DNA from: Candidatus Baldrarchaeota archaeon
GTDB lineage: Archaea; Asgardarchaeota; Baldrarchaeia; Baldrarchaeales; DXJG01
Length of the DNA stretch: 64,000 bases
Direction of reading: 5' to 3'
Assembly (NCBI GenBank): GCA_019056805.1
Contig: DXJG01000002.1
Span: 480,515 to 544,514 of the forward strand
The notes beneath the pieces are model-generated. The model was not told where the DNA came from, did not search any database, and saw only the letters and a program-made list of their open reading frames with translations. Positions 1,624-42,007 of this stretch are shown piece after piece. Each line of letters begins with the position of its first letter. The stretch's first letter is position 1. A program made the position numbers and the translations under genes.

Positions 1624-3759
1624 TTGCAGAGGTTGAAATCACAACGAATTCTAATAGTATCAGAGAAATATAAACAGGCTTTAGCCATTGCGAAAGCTCT
1701 TGGTAAGGTCAAGAGAGAAACACTTAACAATGTGCCAATTCTTTTTGTAAATGCTAACAATTCTAACATCGTTATTGTTCCTCTCCGCGGACATATTACA
1801 GAATATACAACTAAACCAGAATATGAAAAATGGTCGAAAACCGATCCAAAACTCATATTACTAGACAAGAATGCCTTAGAAAGGGTATATAAAGAAATAA
1901 AATACATTAAAGCCTTAAAAACGTTGGCAAAACAATGTGATGAACTAATATTTGCAACAGATGCTGACGAAGAGGGAGAAAATATCGCTTTAGAAGCGTG
2001 GGAAATTATTAGACAAGTAAATCCAAATCTTAAACCAAAACGACTCTGGCTACATACTCTAGTTCCAAGAGACATTCGAGAAGCTTTTAAAAACCTTATT
2101 GAGCCTAAATGGACTTGGGCATATGCAGTTGAAGCTAGAAGACAAATAGATGCTTTAATAGGCTTTGCCGCTACACGTGAACTTACACTAGCATTAAAAC
2201 CATTTCTGAAACAAATAGGAACTAACATTATCAGCGTTGGACGGGTCCAAACACCTACACTCTACCTTATATATGATAGAGAAAGAAAAATTAAAAATTT
2301 TATACCTGAACTTTACTGGAATCTATTAGCAGAAATAAATATCCATGGAGAAATTATTAAAGCAAAGCATGTGAAGTCTCCTTCAAAAGATAAAAACACG
2401 ATTTTTACCATTTATAATAAGATTAGAGGAGAAAAATTTGCAACACTAAAGGATATTAAGAGAAATGAAATCTATATCCAACCTCCAACACCATTTAACA
2501 CTACAGAAGCCCTAAAAACAATAACAAAAATACTTCCAATAACAGCTAAAACAGCCATGAGAATATTAGAAGACCTTTACTTAGACGCTTTAATAAGTTA
2601 TCCAAGAACCGACACTGACAAGTATTCTCCTTCTTTTCCTCATAGAGAAACTATTGCAAAATTTTTGAAAAGCAGAATATATCGTATGTATGCTGAAGAA
2701 ATTATGGAAAGAGGAGTTTTTAAACCTAGACAGGGCAGAGTGTTTAAAGGGGATCATGACCCTATCACCCCGATAGATGTAGCTGAACCTAATGATCGAA
2801 GATTTAGAACACAAAACCACTGGAAAGTATATGATATAGTTGTCAGAAGATATCTCGCGCTCTTCATGCCACCCGCAAAAGAACTTGGAATAAAACTGCT
2901 ATTTTTAATTAATGAAGAACAATTTAAAGCTGAAATAACCACTCTTCTTGAAGAAGGGTTCATGAAAGTTTGGCCATGGATGAAAAAAGAATACACCTTA
3001 ATACCGAAATTACCAAGACTTGGAGTTACACAAATTTATCCAATTAAAAAAATTTATACTGAAGAAAAAAAGACAAAACCGCCACCAAGACTTACCGAGA
3101 GTAATTTAATAGCTATGATGCAAAAATTTAACTTAGGAACAAAATCAACTAGACCACAACACATAGAAACCAATAAAAAACGAGGTTACATTATCAAAAA
3201 GGGAAGAAGTATATTTTGCTCCGACCTTGGATGGACTCTAGCTTCCAATTTAGAAAAAATTTGGCCAGAATTTGTTCTACCAAAATTCACCGCTAAGATT
3301 GAAGAAATGCTTCAAAAAATAATGGACGGATCAACCGATTGGATTAATGTTGTAGAAAATATAAGAAAAGAATTTTTAGACATGTTTGACAAGCTTAGAG
3401 AACGAAAACCAAAAATAGTTGGAGAAATCGAGAAAATCGTTGATAAAATGATGCAAGAAGGCATAACTTCTGAAACTTATGCTAAATGTTTAAAATGCGG
3501 AGGATCAATGATTTTAAGAAAGGGAAAAACTGGCAAACGATATATAAAATGCACCAATTGCGGTGAAACCCGCCCCTTACCTCAACGAGGATCTATTAGA
3601 ATACTTAAAACAAAAATTTGCCCAATATGTGGAAACAACGTTCTATCAATTTCTATTAGAAACTTTTCATATAAATTATGTCCAGTTTGTTGGATATCTA
3701 CGGGTATATGTGCAAAATGTACCTATAATGCTTGTAACATAAATAAAAAACAAAAATAA
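1624..3759 (+). CDS. DNA topoisomerase IA (Topo III/TopA type) with C-terminal C4 zinc ribbons
   Basis: TOPRIM motifs ILIVSEKYKQALAIAKALG and IFATDADEEGENIALE are present, together with the topo IA signatures GRVQTPTL and ISYPRTDTD. Three to four CxxC pairs lie in the last about 100 aa. At 711 aa with no helicase domain, this is not reverse gyrase. Confidence 0.85.
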   Translation: MQRLKSQRILIVSEKYKQALAIAKALGKVKRETLNNVPILFVNANNSNIVIVPLRGHITEYTTKPEYEKWSKTDPKLILLDKNALERVYKEIKYIKALKTLAKQCDELIFATDADEEGENIALEAWEIIRQVNPNLKPKRLWLHTLVPRDIREAFKNLIEPKWTWAYAVEARRQIDALIGFAATRELTLALKPFLKQIGTNIISVGRVQTPTLYLIYDRERKIKNFIPELYWNLLAEINIHGEIIKAKHVKSPSKDKNTIFTIYNKIRGEKFATLKDIKRNEIYIQPPTPFNTTEALKTITKILPITAKTAMRILEDLYLDALISYPRTDTDKYSPSFPHRETIAKFLKSRIYRMYAEEIMERGVFKPRQGRVFKGDHDPITPIDVAEPNDRRFRTQNHWKVYDIVVRRYLALFMPPAKELGIKLLFLINEEQFKAEITTLLEEGFMKVWPWMKKEYTLIPKLPRLGVTQIYPIKKIYTEEKKTKPPPRLTESNLIAMMQKFNLGTKSTRPQHIETNKKRGYIIKKGRSIFCSDLGWTLASNLEKIWPEFVLPKFTAKIEEMLQKIMDGSTDWINVVENIRKEFLDMFDKLRERKPKIVGEIEKIVDKMMQEGITSETYAKCLKCGGSMILRKGKTGKRYIKCTNCGETRPLPQRGSIRILKTKICPICGNNVLSISIRNFSYKLCPVCWISTGICAKCTYNACNINKKQK

Positions 3760-3777: not shown

Positions 3778-4410
3778 TCAAAGTTTTTCCATAACCTTTT
3801 TTACAAGTTCTCTCACAGCTTTTCTCCCGCCTAAAAACAAAGCTAATTCTGCAAGTCTTTCTACATGTCTTTCTAAGACAGGCATTATTATATCTTTTGA
3901 TTGAGTATCTAAGCTTGTTACGAGGTCTATTAATTCGCTTAAGGTATCAAAAACGCTTCTAAACATGTCATAAACATACATAGGAGCGTCTGAAACTCTT
4001 CTCTTCGCAATTAGATTCCCAACATTATAGTAAACTTCTTTAACAACAATTTCAGGAGAAGCACCATTTCCAAGTTTGTTGAGACCGTTCTTTAGGATTT
4101 CCTCTACGGTATTTTGCATTTGCCAAATCTGTTCATTGCTTTTACTTTTGCTCTCAAAAAATACCGCTAACGCATAGTGTTCAACTTCTTTTGTTTTTCC
4201 AAAGAAAATACATGCTATCATACCTAAATCTGGAAAAAGAGTTTGTACACAACCTTCAGCTTCGCTCAAATCTTTTGCACCACTGCTTACCCAAACATCC
4301 AAAGCCATATTCCAAAGTTTCTCTCGAGGGATAAATCCCTCGGGAAACATAGCCTCCGCTATAGGTCCCAGTTTATAATCAAACTTAATAAGAAGTACAC
4401 CTTTGAGCAT
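3778..4410 (-). CDS. longin-like domain protein (family member 1 of 3 in window)
   Basis: The N-terminus MLKGVLLIKFDYKLGPIAEAMFPEGF fits a profilin/longin-like alpha-beta pattern, followed by a helical C-terminal half. It lies 18 nt downstream of the KaiC-like gene on the same strand. It is a paralog of 6189-6839 and 8613-9089. Confidence 0.55.
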   Translation of the reverse strand: MLKGVLLIKFDYKLGPIAEAMFPEGFIPREKLWNMALDVWVSSGAKDLSEAEGCVQTLFPDLGMIACIFFGKTKEVEHYALAVFFESKSKSNEQIWQMQNTVEEILKNGLNKLGNGASPEIVVKEVYYNVGNLIAKRRVSDAPMYVYDMFRSVFDTLSELIDLVTSLDTQSKDIIMPVLERHVERLAELALFLGGRKAVRELVKKVMEKL

Positions 4411-4428
4411 TTATAAGCCACACACCAA

Positions 4429-5835
4429 TTATTCTATCGGAACGAGACGAGTTTCAATATAACCTTTCTCAGTGCTTACGGTCATAACATACATTTCGGT
4501 CCTAGGTATAAGTCCGTAAATTACAGTAGTTCCTTCAATATTTTCCAACTTAAAGTGGGTAGTAGCCATATGGCAAAGCGTTCTAATAAGTTTCTGACCA
4601 TATTTTACTATAGCTAGAACCAAAAGATTTCTAGTCCTTGAAAGTATAGACAACTGACTCAGAAACTTGTAAACAGTTTGAGGATCATATATATGTTCCA
4701 CCGTATCCACACCAATAATAAAAGCCAAGTCCCTGCTACCAACTTTTTCTCTTAATTCATTTACTGCTTTCGAAGCTATTTGATGTGCTTTAGCAACATC
4801 TCCTCTCGGTATTTTTAAAATATAGGGCTTTTCAGCTTCTGCTTCTTCAACCTCTAAAATCCTAACGCACGCATTAAATTTTTCTTCTCCAACAAAGGGA
4901 ATAATCCACTTTTCTAACTCTTCGACAGGTTCTCCTTCACATGGAATAATCATCACTGGTATATTATGTTGGACAAGATTTGCCACAAGAGGGGCTACAA
5001 GCCAAAGATAGTATGGTCCTACTTCTTCTCCGATTTCTAAGAGGTTAAAGCTTCCTCTTCTATAACCTCCAGCCGTTAAATTGTTTAAATCTTCCACTCC
5101 CGTTGAAATTCTCTCCTTACTCGTGATTAAAGGCGGACTGACAACTTTCTCAGGGAAGTAAATTGGTTCATCTCTGAAGTGCGTAAATCTTCCATCTTTT
5201 AAAGTAAAAAGAAATGTAGGTTTCTTAATTTCTTCCCCCCTTATTTTCTCAAATATAATTTTTCTAATAAGTCTCCCTTGGATAATTTCACGAGTTAAAG
5301 TTACGATCCCATCGACTAGATAATCTATAGTTAACGCTTCATATCTTTCTACAACAAATATCACATTAGAATTGGTAGATTCTCCCAATTCTAATAAAGC
5401 TCTTTCTATTCTTAAATTTTCTAATGGAATATCCAAATTAGTTTTTAATGCGTCTAAACTATCGATCACGATTGTAACTGGTCGCTTTTTTGAACTCTCA
5501 ATTTTAGCATATAAAGCTCTTAAGAAATCAGGCTCGTCTGAATATTCAAAAAGTATATATTCTGGAGCTGACACAGGAATCTGGGGTTTTCTAGCATCTA
5601 AAATGTTTTCTTCGGGAATACTATCTTTAATCCAAGGAAACTGCCTTAAAAGTTTCTTGCTTGACACACGTGTAGAAACATAATAGCTTGTTCCATTTAT
5701 TCCCATCTTCTTAATTAATTCCAAAGCTAAAGTTGTTTTTCCCGTACCAGCTAAGCCTTTTATTAATAGAGAAAAACCACCCTTGTTTAAAGCACTAATC
5801 AGTTCTTTTGGCACACCAAAAGAAACACTAACCAT
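4429..5835 (-). CDS. KaiC-like double RecA-fold ATPase (second domain degenerate)
   Basis: The N-terminal Walker A is GLAGTGKTT within MVSVSFGVPKELISALNKGGFSLLIKGLAGTGKTTLALEL, and a Walker B-like IVIDSLD follows. The second RecA-like half (…GGYRRGSFNLLEIGEEVG…) lacks an intact P-loop. Confidence 0.75.
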   Translation of the reverse strand: MVSVSFGVPKELISALNKGGFSLLIKGLAGTGKTTLALELIKKMGINGTSYYVSTRVSSKKLLRQFPWIKDSIPEENILDARKPQIPVSAPEYILFEYSDEPDFLRALYAKIESSKKRPVTIVIDSLDALKTNLDIPLENLRIERALLELGESTNSNVIFVVERYEALTIDYLVDGIVTLTREIIQGRLIRKIIFEKIRGEEIKKPTFLFTLKDGRFTHFRDEPIYFPEKVVSPPLITSKERISTGVEDLNNLTAGGYRRGSFNLLEIGEEVGPYYLWLVAPLVANLVQHNIPVMIIPCEGEPVEELEKWIIPFVGEEKFNACVRILEVEEAEAEKPYILKIPRGDVAKAHQIASKAVNELREKVGSRDLAFIIGVDTVEHIYDPQTVYKFLSQLSILSRTRNLLVLAIVKYGQKLIRTLCHMATTHFKLENIEGTTVIYGLIPRTEMYVMTVSTEKGYIETRLVPIE

Positions 5836-6188
5836 AGATAGTCACCCTTATTCTTGGAAATAAACCGTTTAATTATTTTTTCTTTTAGTTTTATAAAGTC
5901 TTAAATATTTATTGTATTGATAGATTTTAAATTTTCGGTATTTACACCTAACTTCGTAATTTAGACCGTTTAAAGACGAATGACGACTTAAAAACCAGAT
6001 AACCTTCAATGTTTACAAATAATATAATTTCACTTAGCTGGGATTTTAAAAAAGCTAATTCTTCCTTTACAAAGTGTTAGAGGCTTATAGTAAAATTAAT
6101 ATTGGGTTGAAATTAAATGTAGTATCATGTATAATAACATTGTACTTAAAAATCGAGGGGGTTCAAAAGACGTCGTGAGGGAGCTTTC

Positions 6189-26798: not shown

Positions 26799-27383
26799 TT
26801 AGATTTCCCCTTCTGCCAGTTTTTTGAGAGCATTTTTTCCCTCTATAAAACCTCTTGCAATAATAATATCTCCAGCCTTTAATACAAAGTCACTCGGTGG
26901 ATTATAAAACCATTTGTCCTCTCTCTTTAACGCTATTATTTTTACTCCGATTTTTTCTTCAAGTTTTGCTTCTCCTATCATTTTACCATTTAATATAGAG
27001 TTTTCAGAAATTGTTGCTTGCATCACCATTTCTTCAGCTTCTTCCATCACCATTTTCAATATTGGATGAGGTTCAACACCTCTAAGAACGATATCCGCTA
27101 TCTCAGCAGCTGCATCAGCTAAGTTCTCTGTTGCCACACCCAGCCTTAGAAGACCTAGCAAGTTCTTTTCATCCTCTTTTCTTTTAATTCCTATCTTTAA
27201 AACCTTTAGCTCAAATTTTGTATGCAATTTATCAACGTATTCTTCTAAATCCATAACTCTCTCTGCCAAGTCCTTGTCATCGAAGATCAGAGCGGAATAT
27301 GCCAAATCTATCATAAACTCACATGTGTTTTTCAACTGTCTTATCATGTCTTCAATCATTATCCACTCTTCTTCACTTGTCAC
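26799..27383 (-). CDS. PhoU-like / TrkA-C (RCK_C) domain protein
   Basis: A C-terminal GKMIGEAKLEEKIGVKIIALKR...AGDIIIARG matches TrkA-C. A 4-nt overlap with the upstream paralog. Confidence 0.5.
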   Translation of the reverse strand: MTSEEEWIMIEDMIRQLKNTCEFMIDLAYSALIFDDKDLAERVMDLEEYVDKLHTKFELKVLKIGIKRKEDEKNLLGLLRLGVATENLADAAAEIADIVLRGVEPHPILKMVMEEAEEMVMQATISENSILNGKMIGEAKLEEKIGVKIIALKREDKWFYNPPSDFVLKAGDIIIARGFIEGKNALKKLAEGEI

Positions 27384-27994
27384 TTAGCTACCTCCGGAAG
27401 CTTATTAACCTTACCTGAAGACAATTTATCAAGAAATTCTATACTTTCAACACTCCCCCTAGCAATTAAAATGTCTCCAACTTGTAGCTTAATTTTCTTG
27501 TTTGGATTTAAAATCCAGTCTTTCCCCCTTCTAAGAGCTATGACATCCACACCTATCCTTGTTTCTAACTCTAAATCTTCAAAAGTTTTATTTATTAATA
27601 CGCTTTTTTCTCGTATTTTAATTCTTCCAATAATCTCTTCAGTCTTCTTGAAAGCTGAATGAATAGTTGGATGTACAGATATGTCGAGGAGTACGAGATT
27701 TGCTATATCTGCTGCTGCATCTGACATTTTATCAACTGCCGATGCAACTTTAAGTATTCCTGATACTTGTTCAGCATCTTCTCTATCACGGGCTGCTAAA
27801 GCTGCCTGTATACCGAGAAGATAACCGAGATAATCTACTCTTTCCTCTAGTCTCATAACTTCCTCTGCAAGTTTTTTATGATCATATAGAAAAGCAGAAT
27901 ATGCCAAATCTATCATGAGAGACGAAAGATTTTTCATCTCTTTAAGAAGTTCTTTAACAGAAAGTGGTTTATACTGAACTTCTTGAGTTCCCAC
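27380..27994 (-). CDS. PhoU-like / TrkA-C (RCK_C) domain protein (tandem paralog)
   Basis: It has the same architecture as its neighbour, with ...VGDILIARG. Confidence 0.5.
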   Translation of the reverse strand: MGTQEVQYKPLSVKELLKEMKNLSSLMIDLAYSAFLYDHKKLAEEVMRLEERVDYLGYLLGIQAALAARDREDAEQVSGILKVASAVDKMSDAAADIANLVLLDISVHPTIHSAFKKTEEIIGRIKIREKSVLINKTFEDLELETRIGVDVIALRRGKDWILNPNKKIKLQVGDILIARGSVESIEFLDKLSSGKVNKLPEVAK

Positions 27995-28332
27995 TTCTTA
28001 TACTCCTCCAACTTCACCTATTCCATTTAAAATTTAAAACTTATTCCATAAATTCATGGTTCTTAGAAAAAATATTGTTTTCCTCTTAATTGTTATTAAT
28101 TGTTTCTCATAAGTATTTCTCTAATAATAGTTATTCATTTCATGGTATCCACTTTTTTAATATTAAAAGCACATGAAATCAAAAACACATATCTAGAATT
28201 TCTTAGTTCTTGAATTCTTAGAAAAGGATTCATAAATGTTTTCATCTTGTTTCGACCTTTTTTGTCGAGTATTATAAATAATAGTAAAATATATTACCAC
28301 ATTAAGATGTAATATTTACTATAACATTTTTC

Positions 28333-29175
28333 ATGATGATCAAAATGAATACATCGCTCCAAAAAAAGCTACTTAAAATACTCGAAGAATTAGGATTTAC
28401 GCAAAATGAAGCCAAAATATACTTAGTTCTATTTTTCTCCGGCGCCCCGCTAAATGCATCCGAAATATCAAATTATTCAAATGTCCCCCGTCCCAATGTT
28501 TATGAAACAATAAATAAACTCATAGAAAAGGGTTTTGTTTTAAAAGAGGCCTCTAGTAGAGGAGGACGATATGTAGCTATTATACCTCAAGAAATGCTAG
28601 ATATGCTACGTAAAAGATATGAACAACGCCTAAAACTAATCGATGAAACAATATTACAGTTTAAGGAAATGCTTAACAGGAGTTTAGGTGAATCTAAACT
28701 CTCAGCCATGAGTACAATAGAATTTATTAACGATGAAGAAAAAATCACTAGAATTATTGGAGAGGTCCTTGAATCTGCTCAATCCAAACTAATTACAATC
28801 ATCACCCCCGATGTCTTAGAGATCGAAGGGAAAAATATTGTTAGAATGCTTAGACGTTTGGCCAAAAGGAATGTGGATATTACCGTGGGAATAAAGACAA
28901 ATGATGATTATAAGTACTATGTTCGTGAACTATCAAAAATCTCTACTTTATATCTCTGGACTTATGGCGAATTACCACTTGGTTGCTATATTGCTGACGA
29001 TACTAACTGCTTAGTTACATTAGTTGGGAAATGGTCACCAATTGTATCCTATAATGTTGGTATTTTTACCGGAAATCCACTATACACAAAATCCTTCGGA
29101 TACTTCGCTCAAAAACTCCTAACATTGACGACACAAGAAATAGAGATAGTTAAAGAAATTCGTAGAAGAAGATAG
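28333..29175 (+). CDS. TrmB-family transcriptional regulator (paralog of 9224-10042)
   Basis: LGFTQNEAKIYLVLFFSGAPLNASEISNYSNVPRPNVYETINKLIEKGFV is the HTH. The C-terminal block GCYIADDTNCLVTLVGKWSPI is shared with the paralog. Confidence 0.7.
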   Translation: MMIKMNTSLQKKLLKILEELGFTQNEAKIYLVLFFSGAPLNASEISNYSNVPRPNVYETINKLIEKGFVLKEASSRGGRYVAIIPQEMLDMLRKRYEQRLKLIDETILQFKEMLNRSLGESKLSAMSTIEFINDEEKITRIIGEVLESAQSKLITIITPDVLEIEGKNIVRMLRRLAKRNVDITVGIKTNDDYKYYVRELSKISTLYLWTYGELPLGCYIADDTNCLVTLVGKWSPIVSYNVGIFTGNPLYTKSFGYFAQKLLTLTTQEIEIVKEIRRRR

Positions 29176-29196
29176 AGTACAAGGTTTACATGAATG

Positions 29197-29786
29197 TTAT
29201 CTTGTCTTTTTTATCTTCTGCAATCTCAACAATAGCTCTCTGGCTTGGGAGTTTTTTTCGAAGTATTCTCTTACAGGTTTCAAAAATTCTATTAGTGCCT
29301 CTGCCGCGGCATTTTTTAGATCCAATGGGTGAAGTTCACCCTTTAAATATATTTGTTCTAATTCGGGATAACTTTCAACAATTAAATCTCCACCATACTT
29401 TTCGGGTCTATGTATCTCTAATGTAAAATCATCTCGTGCAAATAATAAGTACTTATTTATTTCCATAATCGGATTAAATTCTATATCTTTTGGTGGACAA
29501 TAAGCTTGTTTAATCTTTTTCCTTATATCTTCCGGTGTATCATGAACAAATATACATGTTTCAGGCAGACTTTTACTCATTTTCGTATCTAAAAGAATTT
29601 CTTCTCTTGATTTTCCCGTAACATCCATCCTTCCTACCCCAGCCAAACCTGAGAGAAGAGGTGTATGAACAGCTACCGGCTTTCTTCTACCAAGTTTCGG
29701 TGCAATATCCCTACATAACATGTGGACACTTCTTTGATCCATTCCACCATAAGCTACATCCACATCAAGAAGAAAAACATCTGCTG
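29197..29786 (-). pseudogene. tyrosyl-tRNA synthetase paralog, C-terminal half only; in-frame TAA inside conserved motif, N-terminal half decayed
   Basis: The 188-aa GTG ORF starts GGMDQRSVHMLCRD...KMSKS...NPIMEINKY...RPEKYGGDL...ELHPLDLKNA, closely matching the archaeal TyrRS C-terminal half. The upstream frame continues ...KIFDVLSAR*AADVFLLDVDVAYGGMDQR, which corresponds to the YPxMQ-VDV-GGMDQR region. Further upstream all frames are closed. Confidence 0.5.
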
Positions 29787-29802
29787 CTTAGCGCGCGCTA
29801 AG
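29787..29802. repeat. perfect 16-bp GC-rich palindrome CTTAGCGCGCGCTAAG
   Basis: A conspicuous GC core in AT-rich DNA that supplies TAA in both orientations. It sits at the exact break point of the TyrRS paralog. Confidence 0.9.
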
Positions 29803-30257
29803 AACATCAAAAATCTTACAGTTAAGTCCATTTATCCGCAATATTTTAAAATTCAGGTATTTTTCATATCTTGGGTGGAAGTGATGGTGCTTCAATGTCA
29901 AGAAGATTGCTTCAGAGAAAATATTCAGGACTTACGTAGATTCCTCTTCAGGGCTCTATATAGAAATTAAATTCTAATGTTATCGCGTGGATCTTAAAAA
30001 TTCTTCTTCCTGATATTTCTATTGACCTTTTTGAGCGGAAGATTCCGAATATCACCTTCTGCTCTTAAAATTTAATGCAAGGGTTCTAGAGAACCTTGAT
30101 CTAACAGAAAGAAAACAAAAACTACGTTTCCCATAAGCTAGCCAGATAGTTCCTAGACTTCTATTATGCGAAAATGCTTTAAGTTAAATTTTTCAAAGTT
30201 GTTAAATTAACATGATATTCAGAAAAATAAAAGTTCAATAGAAGGAGGAATATAGAC

Positions 30258-31331
30258 ATGGATGTAGAAGAAAGATTAAATTTGATTAAACGACCACCAA
30301 CAGAAGAAATAATAACAGAAGAGGAGTTAAGAGAGCTTCTAGAAACCACTACCCATCCTAAGCATTACATAGGATTTGAAATTTCCGGTTTATTACACTT
30401 AGGAACTTTAATAATATGTGGTTATAAGATAAATGACTTAGCAGAAGCTGGTGTTGACGTTACAGTTTATCTTGCAGATTGGCATAGTTTTATCAATAAA
30501 AAGCTAGGTGGAAACTGGGAAAACATTCTAAAGGCTGCAAAGTATTATGAGAAAGCTTTTAAATTCTTTTGTCCCAAAGCAAAAATTGTTCTTGGATCAG
30601 AATTATATCATCATAACGATGAGTATTGGAAAGATGTTATAAGATTCTCTTCGCATATAACGTTGGCCAGGAATGTACGTTGCCTAACAATAATGGGAAG
30701 AAGTGAAAAGGAAAAATTAAATTTTGCGCAATATATTTACCCGCCCATGCAAGCTGTGGATATAAAATATCTGGGTGAAGATATACCACATGGTGGGATG
30801 GATCAAAGAAAGGTTCATGTTTTAGCAAGAGAAGTATTTCCAAAACTTGGTTGGAAAAAACCCGTAGCACTTCATCATCATTTGTTAATGGGTTTGGCAG
30901 GACCACCGAGAATAAAAACTAAGGATAAATTAGAGAAAGTAATTGCAATGAAAATGAGTAAAAGCAAACCATGGACATGTATATTTATTCATGACTCTGA
31001 AGAACAAATAAAGAAAAAACTATTAAAAGCATGGTGTCCCGAGAGGCAGGTTGAATTCAACCCTGTATTAGAATTGGTTAAATACATAATTTTTCACGAA
31101 AAAAAGGAGTTCTTAGTTGAGAGGGAAAGTAAACATGGCGGAGATATAGTTTTTTCTTCTTATGAAGAGTTGGAAAAAGAATACATTAAAGGGAATCTCC
31201 ATCCTTTAGATTTGAAACTATCTGTCGCGCGAGAAATCTCAAATATACTAGATCCCATCAGGAAGTATTTTGAAAGACCATCAAATAGGAAATTGTTAAA
31301 CGTTTTTAAAGAAGTTAAAATTATAAGATAG
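30258..31331 (+). CDS. tyrS: tyrosyl-tRNA synthetase (archaeal type), HIGH motif reads HLGT
   Basis: IGFEISGLLHLGTL, YPPMQAVDIKYLGEDIPHGGMDQRKVH and KMSKSKP are present, plus the anticodon-binding C-terminus. Confidence 0.8.
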   Translation: MDVEERLNLIKRPPTEEIITEEELRELLETTTHPKHYIGFEISGLLHLGTLIICGYKINDLAEAGVDVTVYLADWHSFINKKLGGNWENILKAAKYYEKAFKFFCPKAKIVLGSELYHHNDEYWKDVIRFSSHITLARNVRCLTIMGRSEKEKLNFAQYIYPPMQAVDIKYLGEDIPHGGMDQRKVHVLAREVFPKLGWKKPVALHHHLLMGLAGPPRIKTKDKLEKVIAMKMSKSKPWTCIFIHDSEEQIKKKLLKAWCPERQVEFNPVLELVKYIIFHEKKEFLVERESKHGGDIVFSSYEELEKEYIKGNLHPLDLKLSVAREISNILDPIRKYFERPSNRKLLNVFKEVKIIR

Positions 31332-32679
31332 AAACTATATTTTTGATGGTTTTTCCAAAGTCTGTTAATTCCCAACATTCTTGATTATTTTTTCCGCTAA
31401 CTCGTCTAACAATACCGCTTTTTTCCATCGATTTTAGAAGTCGCATAATAAAATAGCCGTTTCTTCTTATGGAATTTTGAAGCTCGAGCGTTGTAAACTT
31501 AGAATTCATAATGTTAAGGTAGCTTAGTACTCTATATTTTCGATGAGATTTTAAAGCATATGCGAGTATATTGAATTGTTTGGAATCCTTAGGAAAGATT
31601 TGCATAATTTCAATTAAGCTGCGCCAGTTCAAGTACGAGGTCAAGATGAAAAGGTTTCTTGCTTTAGATTTTTTAATTTTACCTTTAATGTTCACATGAC
31701 TCAGTATTTTTTCATAATCTTTTATGTACTGTTCATTGCTTTCAAAAATTTGTAATCTCACATTTAAAGAATTGTTTTTGTCTCTATAACAATATACATT
31801 ACCATCTCCAAGTAACAGTCCTTGTAAAAAGAATTTTAGTATGTCCTTATCAGGATTAGATTTTGTTAAATATCTTCTAATTTCATTCATTGCATTATAG
31901 CAAAATTCCGCCAGTAAGGAATTTGTTACCCAAAGTTTAATTGTAAATTCTTTTACTCTTTCTATTTTTCTTGTGAAAATATTTTTGTTTGGAATTCCAA
32001 GTTTGATCAAAAATGACTTTACTTTTTTGACTTGATTAAACTTTGGATTTATTGAGATAGTCGCATTGAATAACGATATATCAATAAAAGTTTTAGATAG
32101 TTGAAGAAAGTCAGAAATGATTGTCAACGACTTATTAGTAAAGCTAAATTCCCTTCCCCTGCGCCGCTTTAGAATGGTTTTTCCCCCTTCCGCTTGTAGA
32201 TAACCCAACAATTTTGCAAAACTCTTCGAAACGTATCTGTTAAACACTATTTCTTTAGGTCTACCTTTAGCTGGATACCACAAAAATATATTATTTTTAT
32301 AACACCTACAACATATAGGAAAACCTGACATAGTTTTTTGGATTAAAAAGTAAAGTAGATCTATAGAATTCCCATTTAACATTTTAGTTGGTTTCTGTGC
32401 AGCTTCCACTTTTTTAATATGCATAGTGATGATTTGACCTTTTTTTAGTTGGAGAGCTTCTCTACACTTTTTGGGAATAATGATTCTCCTTCCCTTGGTG
32501 AAATAAGTAACAAAAAATTTAGTTCCAATATTCGTAGTTATTCCTATCTCCAAAAATCCATTGTTTATCTTATTTTGTATTTGAGCTGGTACCCAAATAC
32601 GATTACCTTTGTATACTAGTTTCAATTTCATACATATTTGTGGTTTTGAATTAATAAAAAGTCCACCATTTTGTATCAA
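31321..32679 (-). CDS. free-standing two-motif LAGLIDADG-family protein with N-terminal AbrB/SpoVT-like repeats and C-terminal winged helix
   Basis: Motif 1 is FAKLLGYLQAEGGK and motif 2 is FLQGLLLGDGNVY, about 105 aa apart. The N-terminus has NRIWVPAQIQ and GRRIIIPKKCREAL (swapped-hairpin-like). The C-terminus has a wHTH (NSIRRNGYFIMRLLKSMEKSGIVRRV). Confidence 0.6.
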   Translation of the reverse strand: MIQNGGLFINSKPQICMKLKLVYKGNRIWVPAQIQNKINNGFLEIGITTNIGTKFFVTYFTKGRRIIIPKKCREALQLKKGQIITMHIKKVEAAQKPTKMLNGNSIDLLYFLIQKTMSGFPICCRCYKNNIFLWYPAKGRPKEIVFNRYVSKSFAKLLGYLQAEGGKTILKRRRGREFSFTNKSLTIISDFLQLSKTFIDISLFNATISINPKFNQVKKVKSFLIKLGIPNKNIFTRKIERVKEFTIKLWVTNSLLAEFCYNAMNEIRRYLTKSNPDKDILKFFLQGLLLGDGNVYCYRDKNNSLNVRLQIFESNEQYIKDYEKILSHVNIKGKIKKSKARNLFILTSYLNWRSLIEIMQIFPKDSKQFNILAYALKSHRKYRVLSYLNIMNSKFTTLELQNSIRRNGYFIMRLLKSMEKSGIVRRVSGKNNQECWELTDFGKTIKNIVSIL

Positions 32680-32841
32680 TACTCGAAATTTTTTAATTTA
32701 TCAAAATCAAAGCTTGAACCTTATATTTATTTATAATCCCCCAGGAAGAGATAAAATTTTCAATACTTTTCGCTTTTCAGCAAGGAAAGTTTCGCTCTCC
32801 AAAAATATAAAAGAGAATATCTGTCTAATTTTTCTTACCTA

Positions 32842-33366
32842 TTATTTCTTCAATCTTTTCAATAATTGATGAATAAGATCTATTGCTGATTCCAATAAGG
32901 AAAGTTCATACTCTATTTGTTTTTTCAATTGTTCCTTATATTCTTTACGAGTAATCGGATCTGATATTTGATTTATTTTCTCGAACCTATTGACTAGCTT
33001 CCTAATCGATGGATATTTACTCAATATTTCCACATTTCTTTCCGTGTAGGGAGTTGATAATTGATGCACGTGTACACCCTTAGGTGAGACTTCCAATAGA
33101 AGTGTTAGATTACGAGATATTTGAAAATATCTTCTAGGCGGCCCCCCTTCCACTGGCTTTATAAAAGAGTCAATTAGTCCACATCGAAGAAGTTTATCTA
33201 TATATTTTTTAAGGACCCACCTATGCATATCCAGCTCTTCTATTAGTTGAGACCAATATTTTGGTTCATTAAGAGCTTGAAGTATTTTTAGACAGTTTCT
33301 ACCCGAAAGAGCCTTTAACAGCTCTATTATGTCCTCTAATTCTTTTTCGGACTCTCTATTGGTCAT
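32842..33366 (-). CDS. winged-HTH transcriptional regulator (ArsR/Phr-like)
   Basis: ALSGRNCLKILQALNEPKYWSQLIEELDMHRWVLKKYIDKLLRCGLI is the HTH. It is divergent from an Hsp20-like gene. Confidence 0.55.
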   Translation of the reverse strand: MTNRESEKELEDIIELLKALSGRNCLKILQALNEPKYWSQLIEELDMHRWVLKKYIDKLLRCGLIDSFIKPVEGGPPRRYFQISRNLTLLLEVSPKGVHVHQLSTPYTERNVEILSKYPSIRKLVNRFEKINQISDPITRKEYKEQLKKQIEYELSLLESAIDLIHQLLKRLKK

Positions 33367-33476: not shown

Positions 33477-33956
33477 GTGGCAGACTGGGAAGATCCCCTA
33501 GAAAAAGAAATAAGAAAAATACTTGAAAAAATGATAAAAAACTTCACGATAATTTCAGAAATCGATCCAGGAGAGGCCCAATTTTTCGGTTATGAACGAA
33601 TAGAAATTACACTACCCAACGGTAAAAAGATAATTAAAGAACGAAGAACGCCCTCAATCAACAACCATCCAATACTGAATGTAATTAAAGAAAGCCAACC
33701 GGAACAAGATGTCTCAAGCTTTCTAAGCGATGTAATCCGAACACCAAACGAAGTTATAGTCATCGCCGAAGTACCTACACTTGACGAAAGAGACGTAAAT
33801 TTTGAAATCAAAGATGGAGCCGTTAGAATTTTCTGCAATGGTGAAATGATCCACGAAATTAAGATAGAAAACGATGTTGATCCTACCTCCATCAAAAAAG
33901 AATTCAAAAACAGAATCTTAGAGCTCAAAATACCCTTAAAAAAGAAATCCAAATAA
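33477..33956 (+). CDS. small heat shock protein (Hsp20/alpha-crystallin family)
   Basis: The alpha-crystallin domain reads VIVIAEVPTLDERDVNFEIKDGAVRIFCNGEM...VDPTSIKKEFKNRILELKIPLKK. A GTG start follows GGAGGTGA. Confidence 0.5.
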   Translation: MADWEDPLEKEIRKILEKMIKNFTIISEIDPGEAQFFGYERIEITLPNGKKIIKERRTPSINNHPILNVIKESQPEQDVSSFLSDVIRTPNEVIVIAEVPTLDERDVNFEIKDGAVRIFCNGEMIHEIKIENDVDPTSIKKEFKNRILELKIPLKKKSK

Positions 33957-34168
33957 CATCATTACTACATACAAAATTCACATTATTTTTAAACCGTAAG
34001 TTATCCAAACTTACAAAATTGAAAACTTATACCATTATATTTTTTAATCAAAATTAGTGTAACGTATTTTTCATATATTTTAATTTTGAGATGTAGTAAA
34101 TTTTAATATGCAAAAACGGAAAGGTATCTTGTACTGTTCAAAGAATTTTAAAAAGAAAAGTGGTAGCC

Positions 34169-35575
34169 ATGAACAATGAAAAACAGGTATCTGACCTTGA
34201 CAAATTCTTTAAAGCTAAATCTGTAGCTGTTATAGGAGCCTCCGCAACACCTGGTAAAATCGGATATGAGGTCCTTCGCAATCTTGCTTGTTTTGAATAT
34301 AAAGGCAAGATTTTTCCCGTTAATCCTAGAAGAAGCGAAATCCTAGGCCTAAAATGTTATCCATCAGTTCTCAACATACCTGAAAATATCGACCTAGCTG
34401 TCCTAGTTGTATCCGCAGAACTTACACCCAAGACTGTTGAAGAATGCGGAAAAAAAGGCATAAAAAACATCGTAATAATTTCCGGTGGTTTTAAAGAACT
34501 TGGAGAACGCGGAAAAGAACTAGAAGAAAAAACAGCAGAAATCGCCAAAAAATATGGAATTAGAATCATCGGACCAAACTGCATAGGAGTTTTTGATTCA
34601 AAAACAAGACTTGACACGTTCTTTCAAAGCAGAGAACGTATGATTAGACCTCCTCCAGGCCCTATAGCTTTTCTCACCCAAAGCGGCACTTATGGATGCG
34701 CTTTTCTTGAATGGGCCGCTGAAGAAGGCATAGGCATTAGTAAGTTCGTTAGCTACGGTAACAGAATCGATGTTGATGAAGCAGACCTATTACACTACTT
34801 AGCAATGGACGAGGACACAAAGGTAATTGCTATTTACATAGAAGGCTTAGGTGATGGTAGAAAATTTATTGAAGCCGCAAAATACGTTGCTAAGAAAAAA
34901 CCCATAATTGTTCTTAAAGGAGGCAGAACTAAGGAGGGCGCTAAAGCAGCTCAAAGCCACACAGGCTGGCTTGGCGGTGAAGACCGTGTTTACAGAGGAG
35001 CTTTCAAACAAGCAGGCATAATTTGGGCAGACACATTTGAAGAACTTTTCGATATGGCCAAAGCCTTAGCTATGCAACTTCCAGCCCAAGGTCCAAACGT
35101 TGCAATGGTAAGTAATGGAGCTGGACCCATGGTTCAAGCAGTTGACGCATGCGTCGAAAAAAATCTAAAAATAGCTAAACTTACCGAAAAAACAATAAAT
35201 ATCCTTAAAGAAAAACTCCCTCCCTACTATATCGTTAATAATCCCGTTGACGTAACTGGTAGCGCTAATAGTAAAGATTACAAAATTGTTCTTGAAACTC
35301 TTCTAGAAGATCCTAACGTACATATTTTGATGCCTTTCTTCGTCTTCCAAGATACACCTCTAGATGAAGGTATTCTCGATGTTATGAAAGAAATAAATGA
35401 AAAATCCAACAAACCCATCGTTGTTGGCGCTGCTGGTGGACCTTACACAAGAAAAATGTCAAAAGAATTAGAGAAAATAGGAGTTCCCGTTTATCCTATA
35501 CCTGAAAGGACCGTAGCGGCGGCATACGCCCTATATACTTATGGAAACATCAAAAAACGATCAAAATCTGAATAA
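34169..35575 (+). CDS. acetyl-CoA synthetase (ADP-forming), alpha subunit
   Basis: The CoA-binding fold KSVAVIGASATPGKIGYEVLRNL plus a succinyl-CoA-synthetase-like flavodoxin domain and the GxxxQSGxxG block (FLTQSGTYG). Confidence 0.75.
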   Translation: MNNEKQVSDLDKFFKAKSVAVIGASATPGKIGYEVLRNLACFEYKGKIFPVNPRRSEILGLKCYPSVLNIPENIDLAVLVVSAELTPKTVEECGKKGIKNIVIISGGFKELGERGKELEEKTAEIAKKYGIRIIGPNCIGVFDSKTRLDTFFQSRERMIRPPPGPIAFLTQSGTYGCAFLEWAAEEGIGISKFVSYGNRIDVDEADLLHYLAMDEDTKVIAIYIEGLGDGRKFIEAAKYVAKKKPIIVLKGGRTKEGAKAAQSHTGWLGGEDRVYRGAFKQAGIIWADTFEELFDMAKALAMQLPAQGPNVAMVSNGAGPMVQAVDACVEKNLKIAKLTEKTINILKEKLPPYYIVNNPVDVTGSANSKDYKIVLETLLEDPNVHILMPFFVFQDTPLDEGILDVMKEINEKSNKPIVVGAAGGPYTRKMSKELEKIGVPVYPIPERTVAAAYALYTYGNIKKRSKSE

Positions 35576-40894: not shown

Positions 40895-42007
40895 ATGTCA
40901 CTTGTAGAAGGCGGCGAAGTTAAGAAAATTACAGATTATGATAAGCTCATAGAATATTTTGGCGTATCCAGAATAGATCCTATTTTAGATAGATTTAAAG
41001 ATCCTCATAGACTTTTAAGACGAAAAATAGTCTTTGCACATAGAGACTTTGACAAAATACTAGATGAAGTTGATAAAGGCAACATTTTCGCCGTTTTAAG
41101 CGGACGAGGCCCATCAGATAAAATACATTTAGGTCATCTAATTCTCTTCGAACTTAATCTCTATCTTCAAAAAAAGATGGGTGCCAATGTTTATATCCCT
41201 TTATCTGACGATGAAAAATACGTTTTCAAAAAAGTAGAGAGCTTAGAAAAAGCAAAATATTTTGCCTTAGACAACGCCTTAGATATCGTAGCTCTTGGTT
41301 ACGATCCTAACAAGACAGAACTTTTTATTTCTACGGAACTTCCATGGGTATATAAAACTGCAATAAAACTATCACGACACTTAACATATAGTACTGTAAA
41401 GGCTGTTTTCGGATTCAAAGGAGAAAATAACCCAGGAGAAATCTTCTATTCATGCCTTCAAATGGCGCACATACTTTATCCCATCTTGGTACATAAATTA
41501 CCCACCGTGGTTCCAGTTGCTATTGATCAAGATCCTTACATAAGAATTAGTAGAGATGTAGCGGATAAAATTAGAGTATTTAAACCCGCTGGTCTATATC
41601 TTAAGTATCTCAAAGGGTTAACCGGAGAGCCCATGAGTGCAAGTCAACCAGAAACATGTATATTCGCAACAGACAGTCCTGAAGAAGCAAGGAAAAAAAT
41701 CTGGGAGGCATTTACAGGAGGTCAACCAACAATTAAGGAACAGCGAGAGAAAGGCGGAAACCCGGATATATGCGTAGTTTATGAAATGTTAAACGTATAC
41801 TTTGTTGAAGATGACAAAGAAATGGAGAAACTGAGAAACGATTGTATTAGCGGAAATATTCTATGTGGTGAGTGTAAACAAAAATTAACAAATTATGTAA
41901 TTAATTTCCTAGAAAAACACAAAAAGGCAAGAGAAAAATACAGATACAAACTAAAAGACTTCTTCATACATGAAATAGATGAAGATATACTGGCGAAGAT
42001 TCCATAA
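40895..42007 (+). CDS. trpS: tryptophanyl-tRNA synthetase (archaeal/eukaryotic type)
   Basis: SGRGPSDKIHLGHL (HIGH) and GEPMSASQP (KMSAS) are present. Confidence 0.85.
   Translation: MSLVEGGEVKKITDYDKLIEYFGVSRIDPILDRFKDPHRLLRRKIVFAHRDFDKILDEVDKGNIFAVLSGRGPSDKIHLGHLILFELNLYLQKKMGANVYIPLSDDEKYVFKKVESLEKAKYFALDNALDIVALGYDPNKTELFISTELPWVYKTAIKLSRHLTYSTVKAVFGFKGENNPGEIFYSCLQMAHILYPILVHKLPTVVPVAIDQDPYIRISRDVADKIRVFKPAGLYLKYLKGLTGEPMSASQPETCIFATDSPEEARKKIWEAFTGGQPTIKEQREKGGNPDICVVYEMLNVYFVEDDKEMEKLRNDCISGNILCGECKQKLTNYVINFLEKHKKAREKYRYKLKDFFIHEIDEDILAKIP

Follow-up and report, generated by a model that had tools for sequence, protein, structure and literature searches.

Aminoacyl-tRNA synthetase genes are classic objects of horizontal gene replacement, in which the two-gene intermediate is seldom observed and the mechanism can usually not be established. 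In the homeoallele systems known from TyrRS in bacteria and from ThrRS and SerRS in archaea, two divergent forms of a synthetase circulate and are swapped by horizontal gene transfer, partly via recombination in conserved syntenic flanks, and the presence of both forms in one genome is rare and transient (Andam & Gogarten, PMC3191353). Intronless homing is known from the free-standing endonucleases SegF, SegG and MobE of T4-like phages (PMC2988022, PMC2790892) and collaborative homing from the cyanophage psbA intron with F-CphI (PMC6083498). A case of insert-mediated immunity is the 50-nt bypass element of T4 gene 60 (cited in bioRxiv 10.1101/2022.08.31.505936), and an archaeal pre-mRNA bulge-helix-bulge (BHB) intron is known in cbf5 (PMC2738675). 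In this study, we analysed a stretch of 64,000 nucleotides from contig DXJG01000002.1 of a Candidatus Baldrarchaeota archaeon (hereafter the window), in which a complete tyrS gene of 357 codons, coding for a tyrosyl-tRNA synthetase, lies head to head with a tyrS fragment of 188 codons. The locus probably captures an essential gene in the middle of its replacement, the native tyrS having been displaced by a mobile block that carries a foreign tyrS and a LAGLIDADG endonuclease-like gene.

The native tyrS remnant and the inserted block

The sequences used for comparison are contigs coded L001-L007, L071, L090-L092 and L137-L146. L090, L091 and L092, retrieved in a metagenome scan with the longer native copy of L002 as the query (97%, 91% and 90% identity, respectively), share the gene order CoA-ligase (coenzyme A ligase), orf159, orf174, tyrS, TrmB and hold a single intact tyrS of 364 codons (MDVE...GYEPSGLVH[IL]GW..., HLGW or HIGW) only 72 nt from orf174; neither the 357-aa gene nor the LAGLIDADG gene is present at this locus in any of the three. 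Four contigs from other metagenomes, L002-L005, have a 357-aa gene 96% identical to that of the window together with the same neighbours. L001 belongs to a metagenome-assembled genome (MAG) labelled Candidatus Baldrarchaeia, the one label on which the comparison itself based a placement in Baldrarchaeia, and is 95.7% identical to L092, and L146 is a further contig of the window's own population, 100% identical where it covers the window and ending inside the 357-aa gene.

The 3' remnant of the native gene occupies 29197-29787 on the minus strand and comprises the 188-codon open reading frame (ORF; 29197-29763), beyond which homology to intact orthologues reaches 29787; residues 169-364 of the intact L090 protein align to 29787-29200 (tblastn). 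It scores 224.9 bits over positions 173-337 of NF006330, the NCBIfam equivalog model for archaeal tyrosine--tRNA ligase of class Ic (342 positions, curated cutoff 220 bits), and shares 83.5% and 82% amino-acid identity with L002 and L001. GGMDQR, KMSKS and the C-terminal domain are retained; the start codon and Tyr pocket are gone together with the GYEPSG/HLGW and YPPMQ motifs, so that the catalytic domain is incomplete. The nearest non-self relatives of the remnant are TyrRS of a Candidatus Jordarchaeaceae (Asgard) cluster (60% identity), and the intact native type has 2cya as its best PDB match (403.6 bits).

The full-length gene (30258-31331, plus strand), which reads GFEISGLLHLGT, is intact, as the original prediction held, and has both HLGT (motif stretch HYIGFEISGLLHLGTLIICGY) and KMSKS. 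Its product matches NF006330 with 434.4 bits (residues 1-344 on profile positions 1-334 of 342) and PF00579 with 138 bits, and the best solved structure is 2cyc (E 5e-105, 354.7 bits, residues 1-356). Identity is 82-83% to proteins of MAGs labelled Thermoproteota, Thaumarchaeota or Brockarchaeota, 61-70% to those of Bathyarchaeia and 48% to the remnant. Since the block-free relatives hold an intact native gene and the affinity of the 357-aa gene is foreign, comparison at the sequence level shows the fragment to be what this lineage has left of its native tyrS. By the same comparison, the 357-aa HLGT gene is a horizontally acquired xenolog, of the type of Thermoproteota/Bathyarchaeia and of 2cyc, which arrived in a block inserted between orf174 and the native tyrS. 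The pair is thus not the duplicated TyrRS that had been proposed.

The original prediction had also taken HLGT for a deviation from the HIGH motif of class I synthetases and the fragment for the more canonical copy. Of the best 120 homologues of the 357-aa protein, 65 have HLGT, 44 HLGN, six HIGT and the few others another variant, and none of the 120 has HxGH, that is, His at the fourth position. In the solved structures, 2cyc (GFEISGYIHLGT) and 7fg6 (GFEISGFVHLGT) have GFEISG..HLGT as in the 357-aa gene, and 2cya (GYEPSGVAHIGW) has GYEPSG..HIGW as in the intact native orthologues; 2cyc comes from Pyrococcus horikoshii and 2cya from Aeropyrum pernix. The fourth position in these archaeal TyrRS varies freely among T, N, S, W, M, L and I. 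Judged from these alignments, HLGT is an ordinary, clade-wide feature of this TyrRS type, both motif variants occur in bona fide TyrRS, and the orthologues of the fragment, with HLGW or HIGW, do not read HIGH either. A strong Shine-Dalgarno motif (AAGGAGGA) precedes the 357-aa gene, which is 96% identical to its L002 counterpart at the amino-acid level with a ratio of nonsynonymous to synonymous substitutions (dN/dS) of 0.037 (dS 0.446). Together with the match to 2cyc, these features suggest that the 357-aa enzyme is most likely the copy that now charges tRNA-Tyr, and hence that the organism lives on the HLGT gene, one of the options originally envisaged.

Two further observations concern this enzyme type. 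Dozens of '317-aa' TyrRS entries starting MHIGMG (database proteins P0016-P0120) are start-codon miscalls; in L006 (2839-3954) an in-frame TTG about 40 codons upstream yields a full TyrRS N-terminus, which rules out a family of N-terminally truncated 317-aa enzymes. An Aenigmatarchaeota MAG (L071) contains an intact divergent tyrS pair (3828-4928, minus strand, and 4998-6128, plus strand, 69 nt between them) coding for proteins of 366 and 376 aa of the EPSG and EISG types, both with HLGT, and no LAGLIDADG gene was detected in the flanks of this pair.

The remnant is bounded by a deletion junction. Its frame reads upstream as ...KIFDVLSAR*AADVFLLDVDVAYGGMDQR, and the in-frame TAA that had been noticed in the YPxMQ region lies at plus-strand coordinates 29788-29790, at the Q position of YPPMQ. 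The disruption at a GC palindrome was likewise seen correctly: the TAA is inside the palindrome TTAGCGCGCGCTAA (29788-29801), a perfect 16-mer CTTAGCGCGCGCTAAG unique in the window spans 29787-29802, and GCGCGCGC is seen once in the 64 kb against 0.03 expected. Window 28280-29787 aligns with L002 5439-6952 at 76% identity and window 29816-32775 with L002 7565-10515 at 86% (blastn). The intervening 612 bp of L002 (6953-7564) are missing from the window, which instead has 28 unrelated bases (29788-29815) that include the palindrome and are without counterpart in the relatives; neither the window nor the loci compared gave a 12-mer match that could plausibly be their origin. The native codon at the position of the TAA is CAG in the relatives, and homology restarts only at the next codons, GCA GCA. 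As homology stops at the junction, the TAA is part of the filler and not a nonsense mutation.

The 442 bp from 29816 to 30257, the non-coding left arm of the inserted block, end in the ribosome-binding site of the acquired tyrS. They are 76.8% identical to L002 7565-8000, which is also non-coding, are absent from L090, L091 and L092, and show no similarity to TyrRS in any of the three minus-strand frames, all of which are full of stops. To judge from these alignments, the catalytic half of the native gene, which had been thought to have decayed upstream of the TAA, is deleted. Reassignment or readthrough of the TAA is ruled out, the three upstream frames being rich in mixed stops and devoid of TyrRS similarity. 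The N-terminal half has no match elsewhere in the window or in the 750-bp spacer of L002, and a split gene or a separate exon was dropped for this reason.

Mobility of the block is apparent from the incongruence of its flanks. The TrmB-family regulator gene (28333-29175, plus strand; Pfam TrmB), the native left flank that is syntenic in L001, L002 and L090-L092, is 90.9% identical between L002 and L090 and 75.7% between the window and L002, and for the 3' part of the native tyrS the values are 96.1% and 78.4%. On the other side, orf174 (32842-33366, minus strand) is 75.0% identical between L002 and L090 and 83.2% between the window and L002, and orf159 (33477-33956, plus strand) is 69.0% identical between L002 and L091 and 83.5% between the window and L002. 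The two genes of the block, which are not present in L090/L091, are 92.0% (357-aa tyrS) and 85.7% (LAGLIDADG gene) identical between the window and L002 at the nucleotide level. Between the window and L002, the 357-aa tyrS has a dS of 0.446 and the LAGLIDADG core one of 0.448, compared with 1.1-1.9 for PhoU, TrmB and the native tyrS. These divergence values show that the block, with the alleles of orf174 and orf159 that travel with it, has moved between lineages by recombination. Because L002 is close to the block-free L090, it must have obtained the block and these alleles from a window-like lineage.

The native gene of L002 is uniformly 92-99% identical to that of L090 right up to the L002 junction, which indicates that this junction formed on L002's own gene, independently of that in the window, and rules out a crossover within the native gene of L002. 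Upstream of the L002 junction no native homology is detectable (local alignment score 34 compared with a shuffle mean of 32.5), and the L002 spacer was therefore dropped as a decayed native 5' end. The native break thus differs by lineage, falling after the Gly codon of EPSG in L002 and at YPPMQ in the window; the codons left in the truncated resident gene number 320 in L002, 188 in the window and about 42 in L139/L140.

Several features lie around these genes. To the right of orf159, a CoA-ligase gene is found in the window (34160-35575), L090, L091 and L092 and a different gene in L002 (12218-13501), so that in L002 the transferred DNA, or an additional rearrangement, reaches past orf159. 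L001 begins inside the native tyrS (its position 1 corresponds to about 29709 of the window), approximately 80 bp from the equivalent of the window junction, which could be coincidence or strain heterogeneity. Two overlapping tandem PhoU + TrkA_C genes (26799-27994, minus strand; 194 and 204 aa) are kept in all relatives. A 370-aa ORF (40895-42007, plus strand) with 26% identity to TyrRS over residues 38-264 probably codes for the tryptophanyl-tRNA synthetase and has no relation to the tyrS locus. Rfam and tRNA scans revealed no RNA features in the window.

The LAGLIDADG gene and its association with tyrS

The second gene of the block (31321-32679, minus strand) overlaps the 3' end of the acquired tyrS by 11 nt and codes for a protein of 452 aa that matches Pfam LAGLIDADG_3. 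It comprises an AbrB-like N-terminal domain, two LAGLIDADG motifs (LGYLQAEGG and LLLGDG) and a winged-helix-like C-terminal domain; the family profile finds I-DmoI at E 1.5e-4 and, weakly, AbrB regulators. An AlphaFold2 model (mean predicted local distance difference test score, pLDDT, 86.8; predicted template-modelling score, pTM, 0.84) has I-DmoI, I-AniI, I-MsoI, PI-SceI and I-Tsp061I as its top Foldseek matches in the PDB, with probability 1.0. Two acidic residues, E164 and D292, one in each motif, are invariant in 11 homologues of 24-80% identity. As in LAGLIDADG homing endonucleases, two motifs with catalytic acidic residues are set in a pseudo-dimeric alpha-beta-beta-alpha-beta-beta-alpha fold, and the gene is polymorphic at a fixed locus with incongruent flanks: the window and L002 have it, whereas L090, L091 and L092 lack it. 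Between the window and L002 its dN/dS is 0.22 (dS 0.448). In L002, at about 10194, and also in L003-L005, a 1-nt deletion splits the AbrB-like N-terminal domain from the LAGLIDADG core, which are joined in one protein in the database member P0242 (420 aa); the endonuclease gene itself may be starting to decay in some strains.

The family is represented by only 12 clusters among 5.8 billion proteins, and no viral carrier was found among IMG/VR contigs. In all five independent contexts examined the gene adjoins tyrS, which points to a previously undescribed, tyrS-associated LAGLIDADG family. The two genes converge and overlap by 11 nt in the window and L002 and likewise in L139-L141, converge in L144/L145, and diverge in L137/L138 (an Aenigmarchaeota MAG) and in L142/L143. 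The L137 contig also carries, at 1-1382 on the minus strand, a Toprim/topoisomerase gene with two intein-type insertions (Intein_splicing + LAGLIDADG_3).

Remnants of a resident tyrS stand beside the LAGLIDADG gene in three of the five contexts, those outside the window and L002 being on DPANN-like contigs that are not related to each other. In L139 (3436-3567, minus strand) and L140 (609-740, minus strand) the last ~42 codons of a DPANN-type tyrS abut it (tblastn); this stretch is 66% identical to the L142 enzyme (E 5e-13) and has stop codons just upstream, and an intact EISG-type tyrS lies on the other side of the LAGLIDADG gene, so that the cassette is oriented opposite to that in the window. 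In L142 (6149-6271, minus strand), and likewise in L143, a 5' remnant of approximately 22-27 tyrS codons is found just past the 3' end of the LAGLIDADG gene.

Three tyrS genes of the EPSG type, among them those that lie divergently beside the LAGLIDADG gene in L142 and L137 (GFEPSG), are interrupted by short inserts. All three inserts follow the Gly codon of EPSG, and two codons separate this site from the HIGH motif: a 21-nt insert with TGA and TAA in L142 (4703-4683, minus strand), a 29-nt insert with TGA and a frame shift in L137 (4785-4757, minus strand) and a 30-nt insert with three stops at the same site in L007 (Jordarchaeaceae; 4953-4982, plus strand). Removal of the insert restores EPSG-xx-HxG(x), with the two-residue spacing seen in 104 uninterrupted tyrS genes. 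The minimum-free-energy structure of the L142 insert has a GUGG/CCAC helix, an AAA bulge and a CUGA/UCAG hairpin; the folds of L007 and L137 are similar but imperfect, and the z-scores of the three folds are -0.6, -1.25 and -3.0. The general form, a 4-bp helix, a 3-nt bulge and a hairpin, resembles the relaxed BHB (H-B-h') that broad-specificity archaeal splicing endonucleases accept. These inserts are candidates for BHB pre-mRNA mini-introns. No report of a BHB intron in tyrS was found in the literature searched, which covers the field incompletely. Ribosomal bypassing of the inserts was judged unlikely, as inspection revealed no matching landing codon. In L002, the native gene breaks off inside the Gly codon of EPSG, between GG and T, which puts the breakpoint at most 1-2 nt from the insert site in L137, L142 and L007. 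Elsewhere in L007 (about 3392-3421, plus strand) the S-adenosylhomocysteine hydrolase gene is divided into two ORFs around an in-frame insertion that is some 30 nt long and includes a TAA (…TPTK[WET*TPPVFK]PKFDNL…), which forms an AAACAC/GUGUUU hairpin (fold z -2.66) and may be a second mRNA mini-intron.

A proposed mechanism of displacement and its alternatives

The coincidence of the break and insert sites, the strict linkage to tyrS and the remnants suggest a homing model. The LAGLIDADG protein would be an active homing endonuclease that cuts the resident EPSG-type tyrS at the site coding for the HIGH motif, the putative target lying around GAGCCGAGTGGTCTTGTTCAT in the L090-type tyrS (native-type site GGGTATGAGCCGAGTGGTCTTGTTCATATCGGATGG in L090, cassette counterpart GGATTTGAAATTTCCGGTTTATTACACTTAGGAACT). 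The break would be repaired from, or joined to, cassette DNA, by homologous recombination on the orf174/orf159 side and by end-joining with resection on the tyrS side, and the loss of the resident gene would be tolerated because the cassette supplies a cleavage-resistant tyrS. In the window, resection would have taken about 400 nt from the gene end and about 310 nt from the cassette end before the palindromic filler closed the break. Taken as a whole, from cleavage through repair to tolerated loss, this endonuclease-driven mechanism is a tentative proposal that falls a little short of an even chance. In its widest form, a free-standing LAGLIDADG-AbrB-wHTH (winged helix-turn-helix) family would target the HIGH-motif site of tyrS and spread within and between phyla as a cassette with a cleavage-resistant tyrS, either of the EISG/HLGT type or of the EPSG type shielded by a BHB mini-intron, replacing the resident gene as a natural gene drive; the window would be one such event and its palindrome a repair scar. 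We regard this extension as quite possible, if not yet probable.

Several observations weigh against displacement by such a cassette, or against the part assigned to the endonuclease. EISG at the putative target is common to the whole clade of the 357-aa gene, with or without the endonuclease, and no immunity change specific to the cassette was found there. The 80 species-representative genomes with a tyrS of the 357-aa type all lack a LAGLIDADG gene in its vicinity. Without an endonuclease, homology-facilitated illegitimate recombination with its anchor in orf174/orf159 could be enough to place the junctions in tyrS. The remnant shows no relaxed selection, with a dN/dS of 0.05, no internal stops and KMSKS and GGMDQR intact. 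Finally, the junction is known from one assembly, in which a palindromic GC filler is odd for a genome of ~33% GC, and L146 stops short of it.

The block may instead spread by ordinary recombination, through homologous exchange in the flanks and homology-facilitated illegitimate joining, the LAGLIDADG-AbrB-wHTH protein being a domesticated WhiA-like DNA-binding regulator that merely lies beside tyrS. This is a real possibility on which we would place somewhat guarded weight. The AbrB-like and winged-helix-like domains are additional DNA-binding domains, WhiA appears at rank 38 of the structural matches, the protein is under purifying selection, and with only 72 nt between the native tyrS and orf174 an illegitimate junction near the anchor would often fall in tyrS; the lack of a cassette-specific change at the putative target fits as well. 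A domesticated regulator is harder to reconcile with the invariance of both catalytic acidic residues across 11 members of 24-80% identity and with a family that is rare, patchy and present or absent among close relatives. Nor would ordinary exchange readily account for its position beside tyrS of two clades, in two arrangements and in both cassette orientations, with remnants in at least three lineages, or for an L002 breakpoint that coincides with the mini-intron site.

The 188-aa fragment could also function on its own, for instance as an anticodon-binding factor for tRNA-Tyr or in regulation, and have been kept by selection since it was truncated. Its ORF is intact over 188 codons, its dN/dS is 0.05 in comparisons with L002, L001, L090 and L091 (Nei-Gojobori, 188 codons; neighbouring genes 0.03-0.11), a low value thus recurring against three lineages, and the window-specific replacements are mostly conservative (V/L, K/R, I/V). 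The truncated copy of L002 is also low, with 0.07 against L090. A low ratio is, however, what a recent truncation predicts, since most of the divergence, and with it the 0.05, reflects history before the deletion; the value fits very recent truncation or retained function. No Shine-Dalgarno-like or TATA-like element precedes the GTG at 29763 or the first ATG, the fragment begins in the middle of the Rossmann fold, and the truncation point differs among lineages (320, 188 and about 42 codons left). Polarised changes on the L002 branch number five replacements and nine silent changes, including P to L in RPEKYGG, compared with 2/11 on the intact L090 branch, an excess in the truncated copy that is suggestive, the numbers being small. 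No family of such short proteins was found, and the short database matches sampled come from short contigs or, in the case of P0001, from the end of a contig, and do not represent intact short genes. A standalone function is therefore unlikely. Part of the gene and its translation signals are lost, as in a pseudogene, while relaxed selection is not seen, and we infer that the remnant is a young pseudogene, with no start context and half a Rossmann fold, that is still undecayed.

It is similarly improbable that the junction arose through an assembly or consensus error at the GC palindrome and that the native gene is really longer or intact. Such an error is suggested by the unique perfect 16-nt palindrome with its (GC)4 core and no source elsewhere, by a junction present in one assembly only, and by the related contig L001, which ends about 80 bp from the equivalent position. 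A 612-kb contig nevertheless has the same proteins on record, the sequence on either side of the junction is collinear with the relatives and carries the lineage's own divergence, L146 from this population matches at 100% as far as it extends, and 28 novel bases are not normally made by a mis-join. A truncated resident tyrS beside the cassette recurs in the four contigs of the L002 group (three span the junction; L005 has the 5' part only) and again in L139/L140. Duplication in situ, with one copy drifting to HLGT and the canonical copy killed by a nonsense mutation and its N-terminal half decaying, would suit the head-to-head pair and the in-frame TAA at YPxMQ but is effectively refuted. The copies share no more than 48% identity and fall into separate TyrRS clades (2cyc and 2cya types), the relatives have an empty site and one intact gene, the DNA upstream is conserved, non-coding and part of the cassette, 612 bp are missing, and HLGT is the ancestral state of its clade.

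Comparison with known systems

Relatives with an empty site and three independently truncated resident genes present a replacement in progress that is tied to an endonuclease-like gene. If the endonuclease step is true, it would explain the 61-83% identity of one TyrRS type across MAGs assigned by their labels to several archaeal phyla, the locus would be the first archaeal chromosomal example of free-standing homing with an essential gene as cargo, and mRNA BHB mini-introns would gain a selective rationale, namely immunity. For annotation, HLGT, HLGN and HLGW should count as normal forms of the HIGH motif in archaeal TyrRS, the start codon of many '317-aa' TyrRS entries is miscalled, and a short 'partial' tyrS ORF beside a full gene can be a displacement remnant.

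The cbf5 intron resembles the tyrS inserts in being a short insert in a protein-coding gene whose removal would be by the tRNA splicing endonuclease; here, the gene is tyrS, the MAGs are labelled Jordarchaeaceae and Aenigmarchaeota, and the motif resembles the relaxed H-B-h' form. The psbA intron and the gene 60 element share with the inserts the location of a short non-coding sequence in an essential gene, at the presumed cut site of a neighbouring free-standing endonuclease, and its removal or bypass at the RNA level. In work on MobA, an endonuclease is reportedly partnered with the gene 60 bypass element. Unlike these, the tyrS inserts are 21-30 nt long and BHB-like, are neither group I introns nor bypass elements and offer no landing GGA codon, and their splicing and protective effect are putative.

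As with SegF, SegG and MobE, the endonuclease gene adjoins its presumed target, and the flanks are co-converted, the allele of a neighbour being replaced together with the endonuclease gene. The differences are that the host is an archaeal chromosome, that the enzyme is of the LAGLIDADG type and has additional AbrB-like and winged-helix domains, that the allele carried is a xenolog of 44-48% identity, so that one junction is non-homologous, and that cleavage is putative here. With the homeoalleles, the locus shares two divergent synthetase forms that replace each other within a group. It departs from them in that the intermediate is kept, with the two forms side by side and the resident truncated, and in that the incoming form is linked to an endonuclease-like gene and leaves 3' remnants that differ between lineages.

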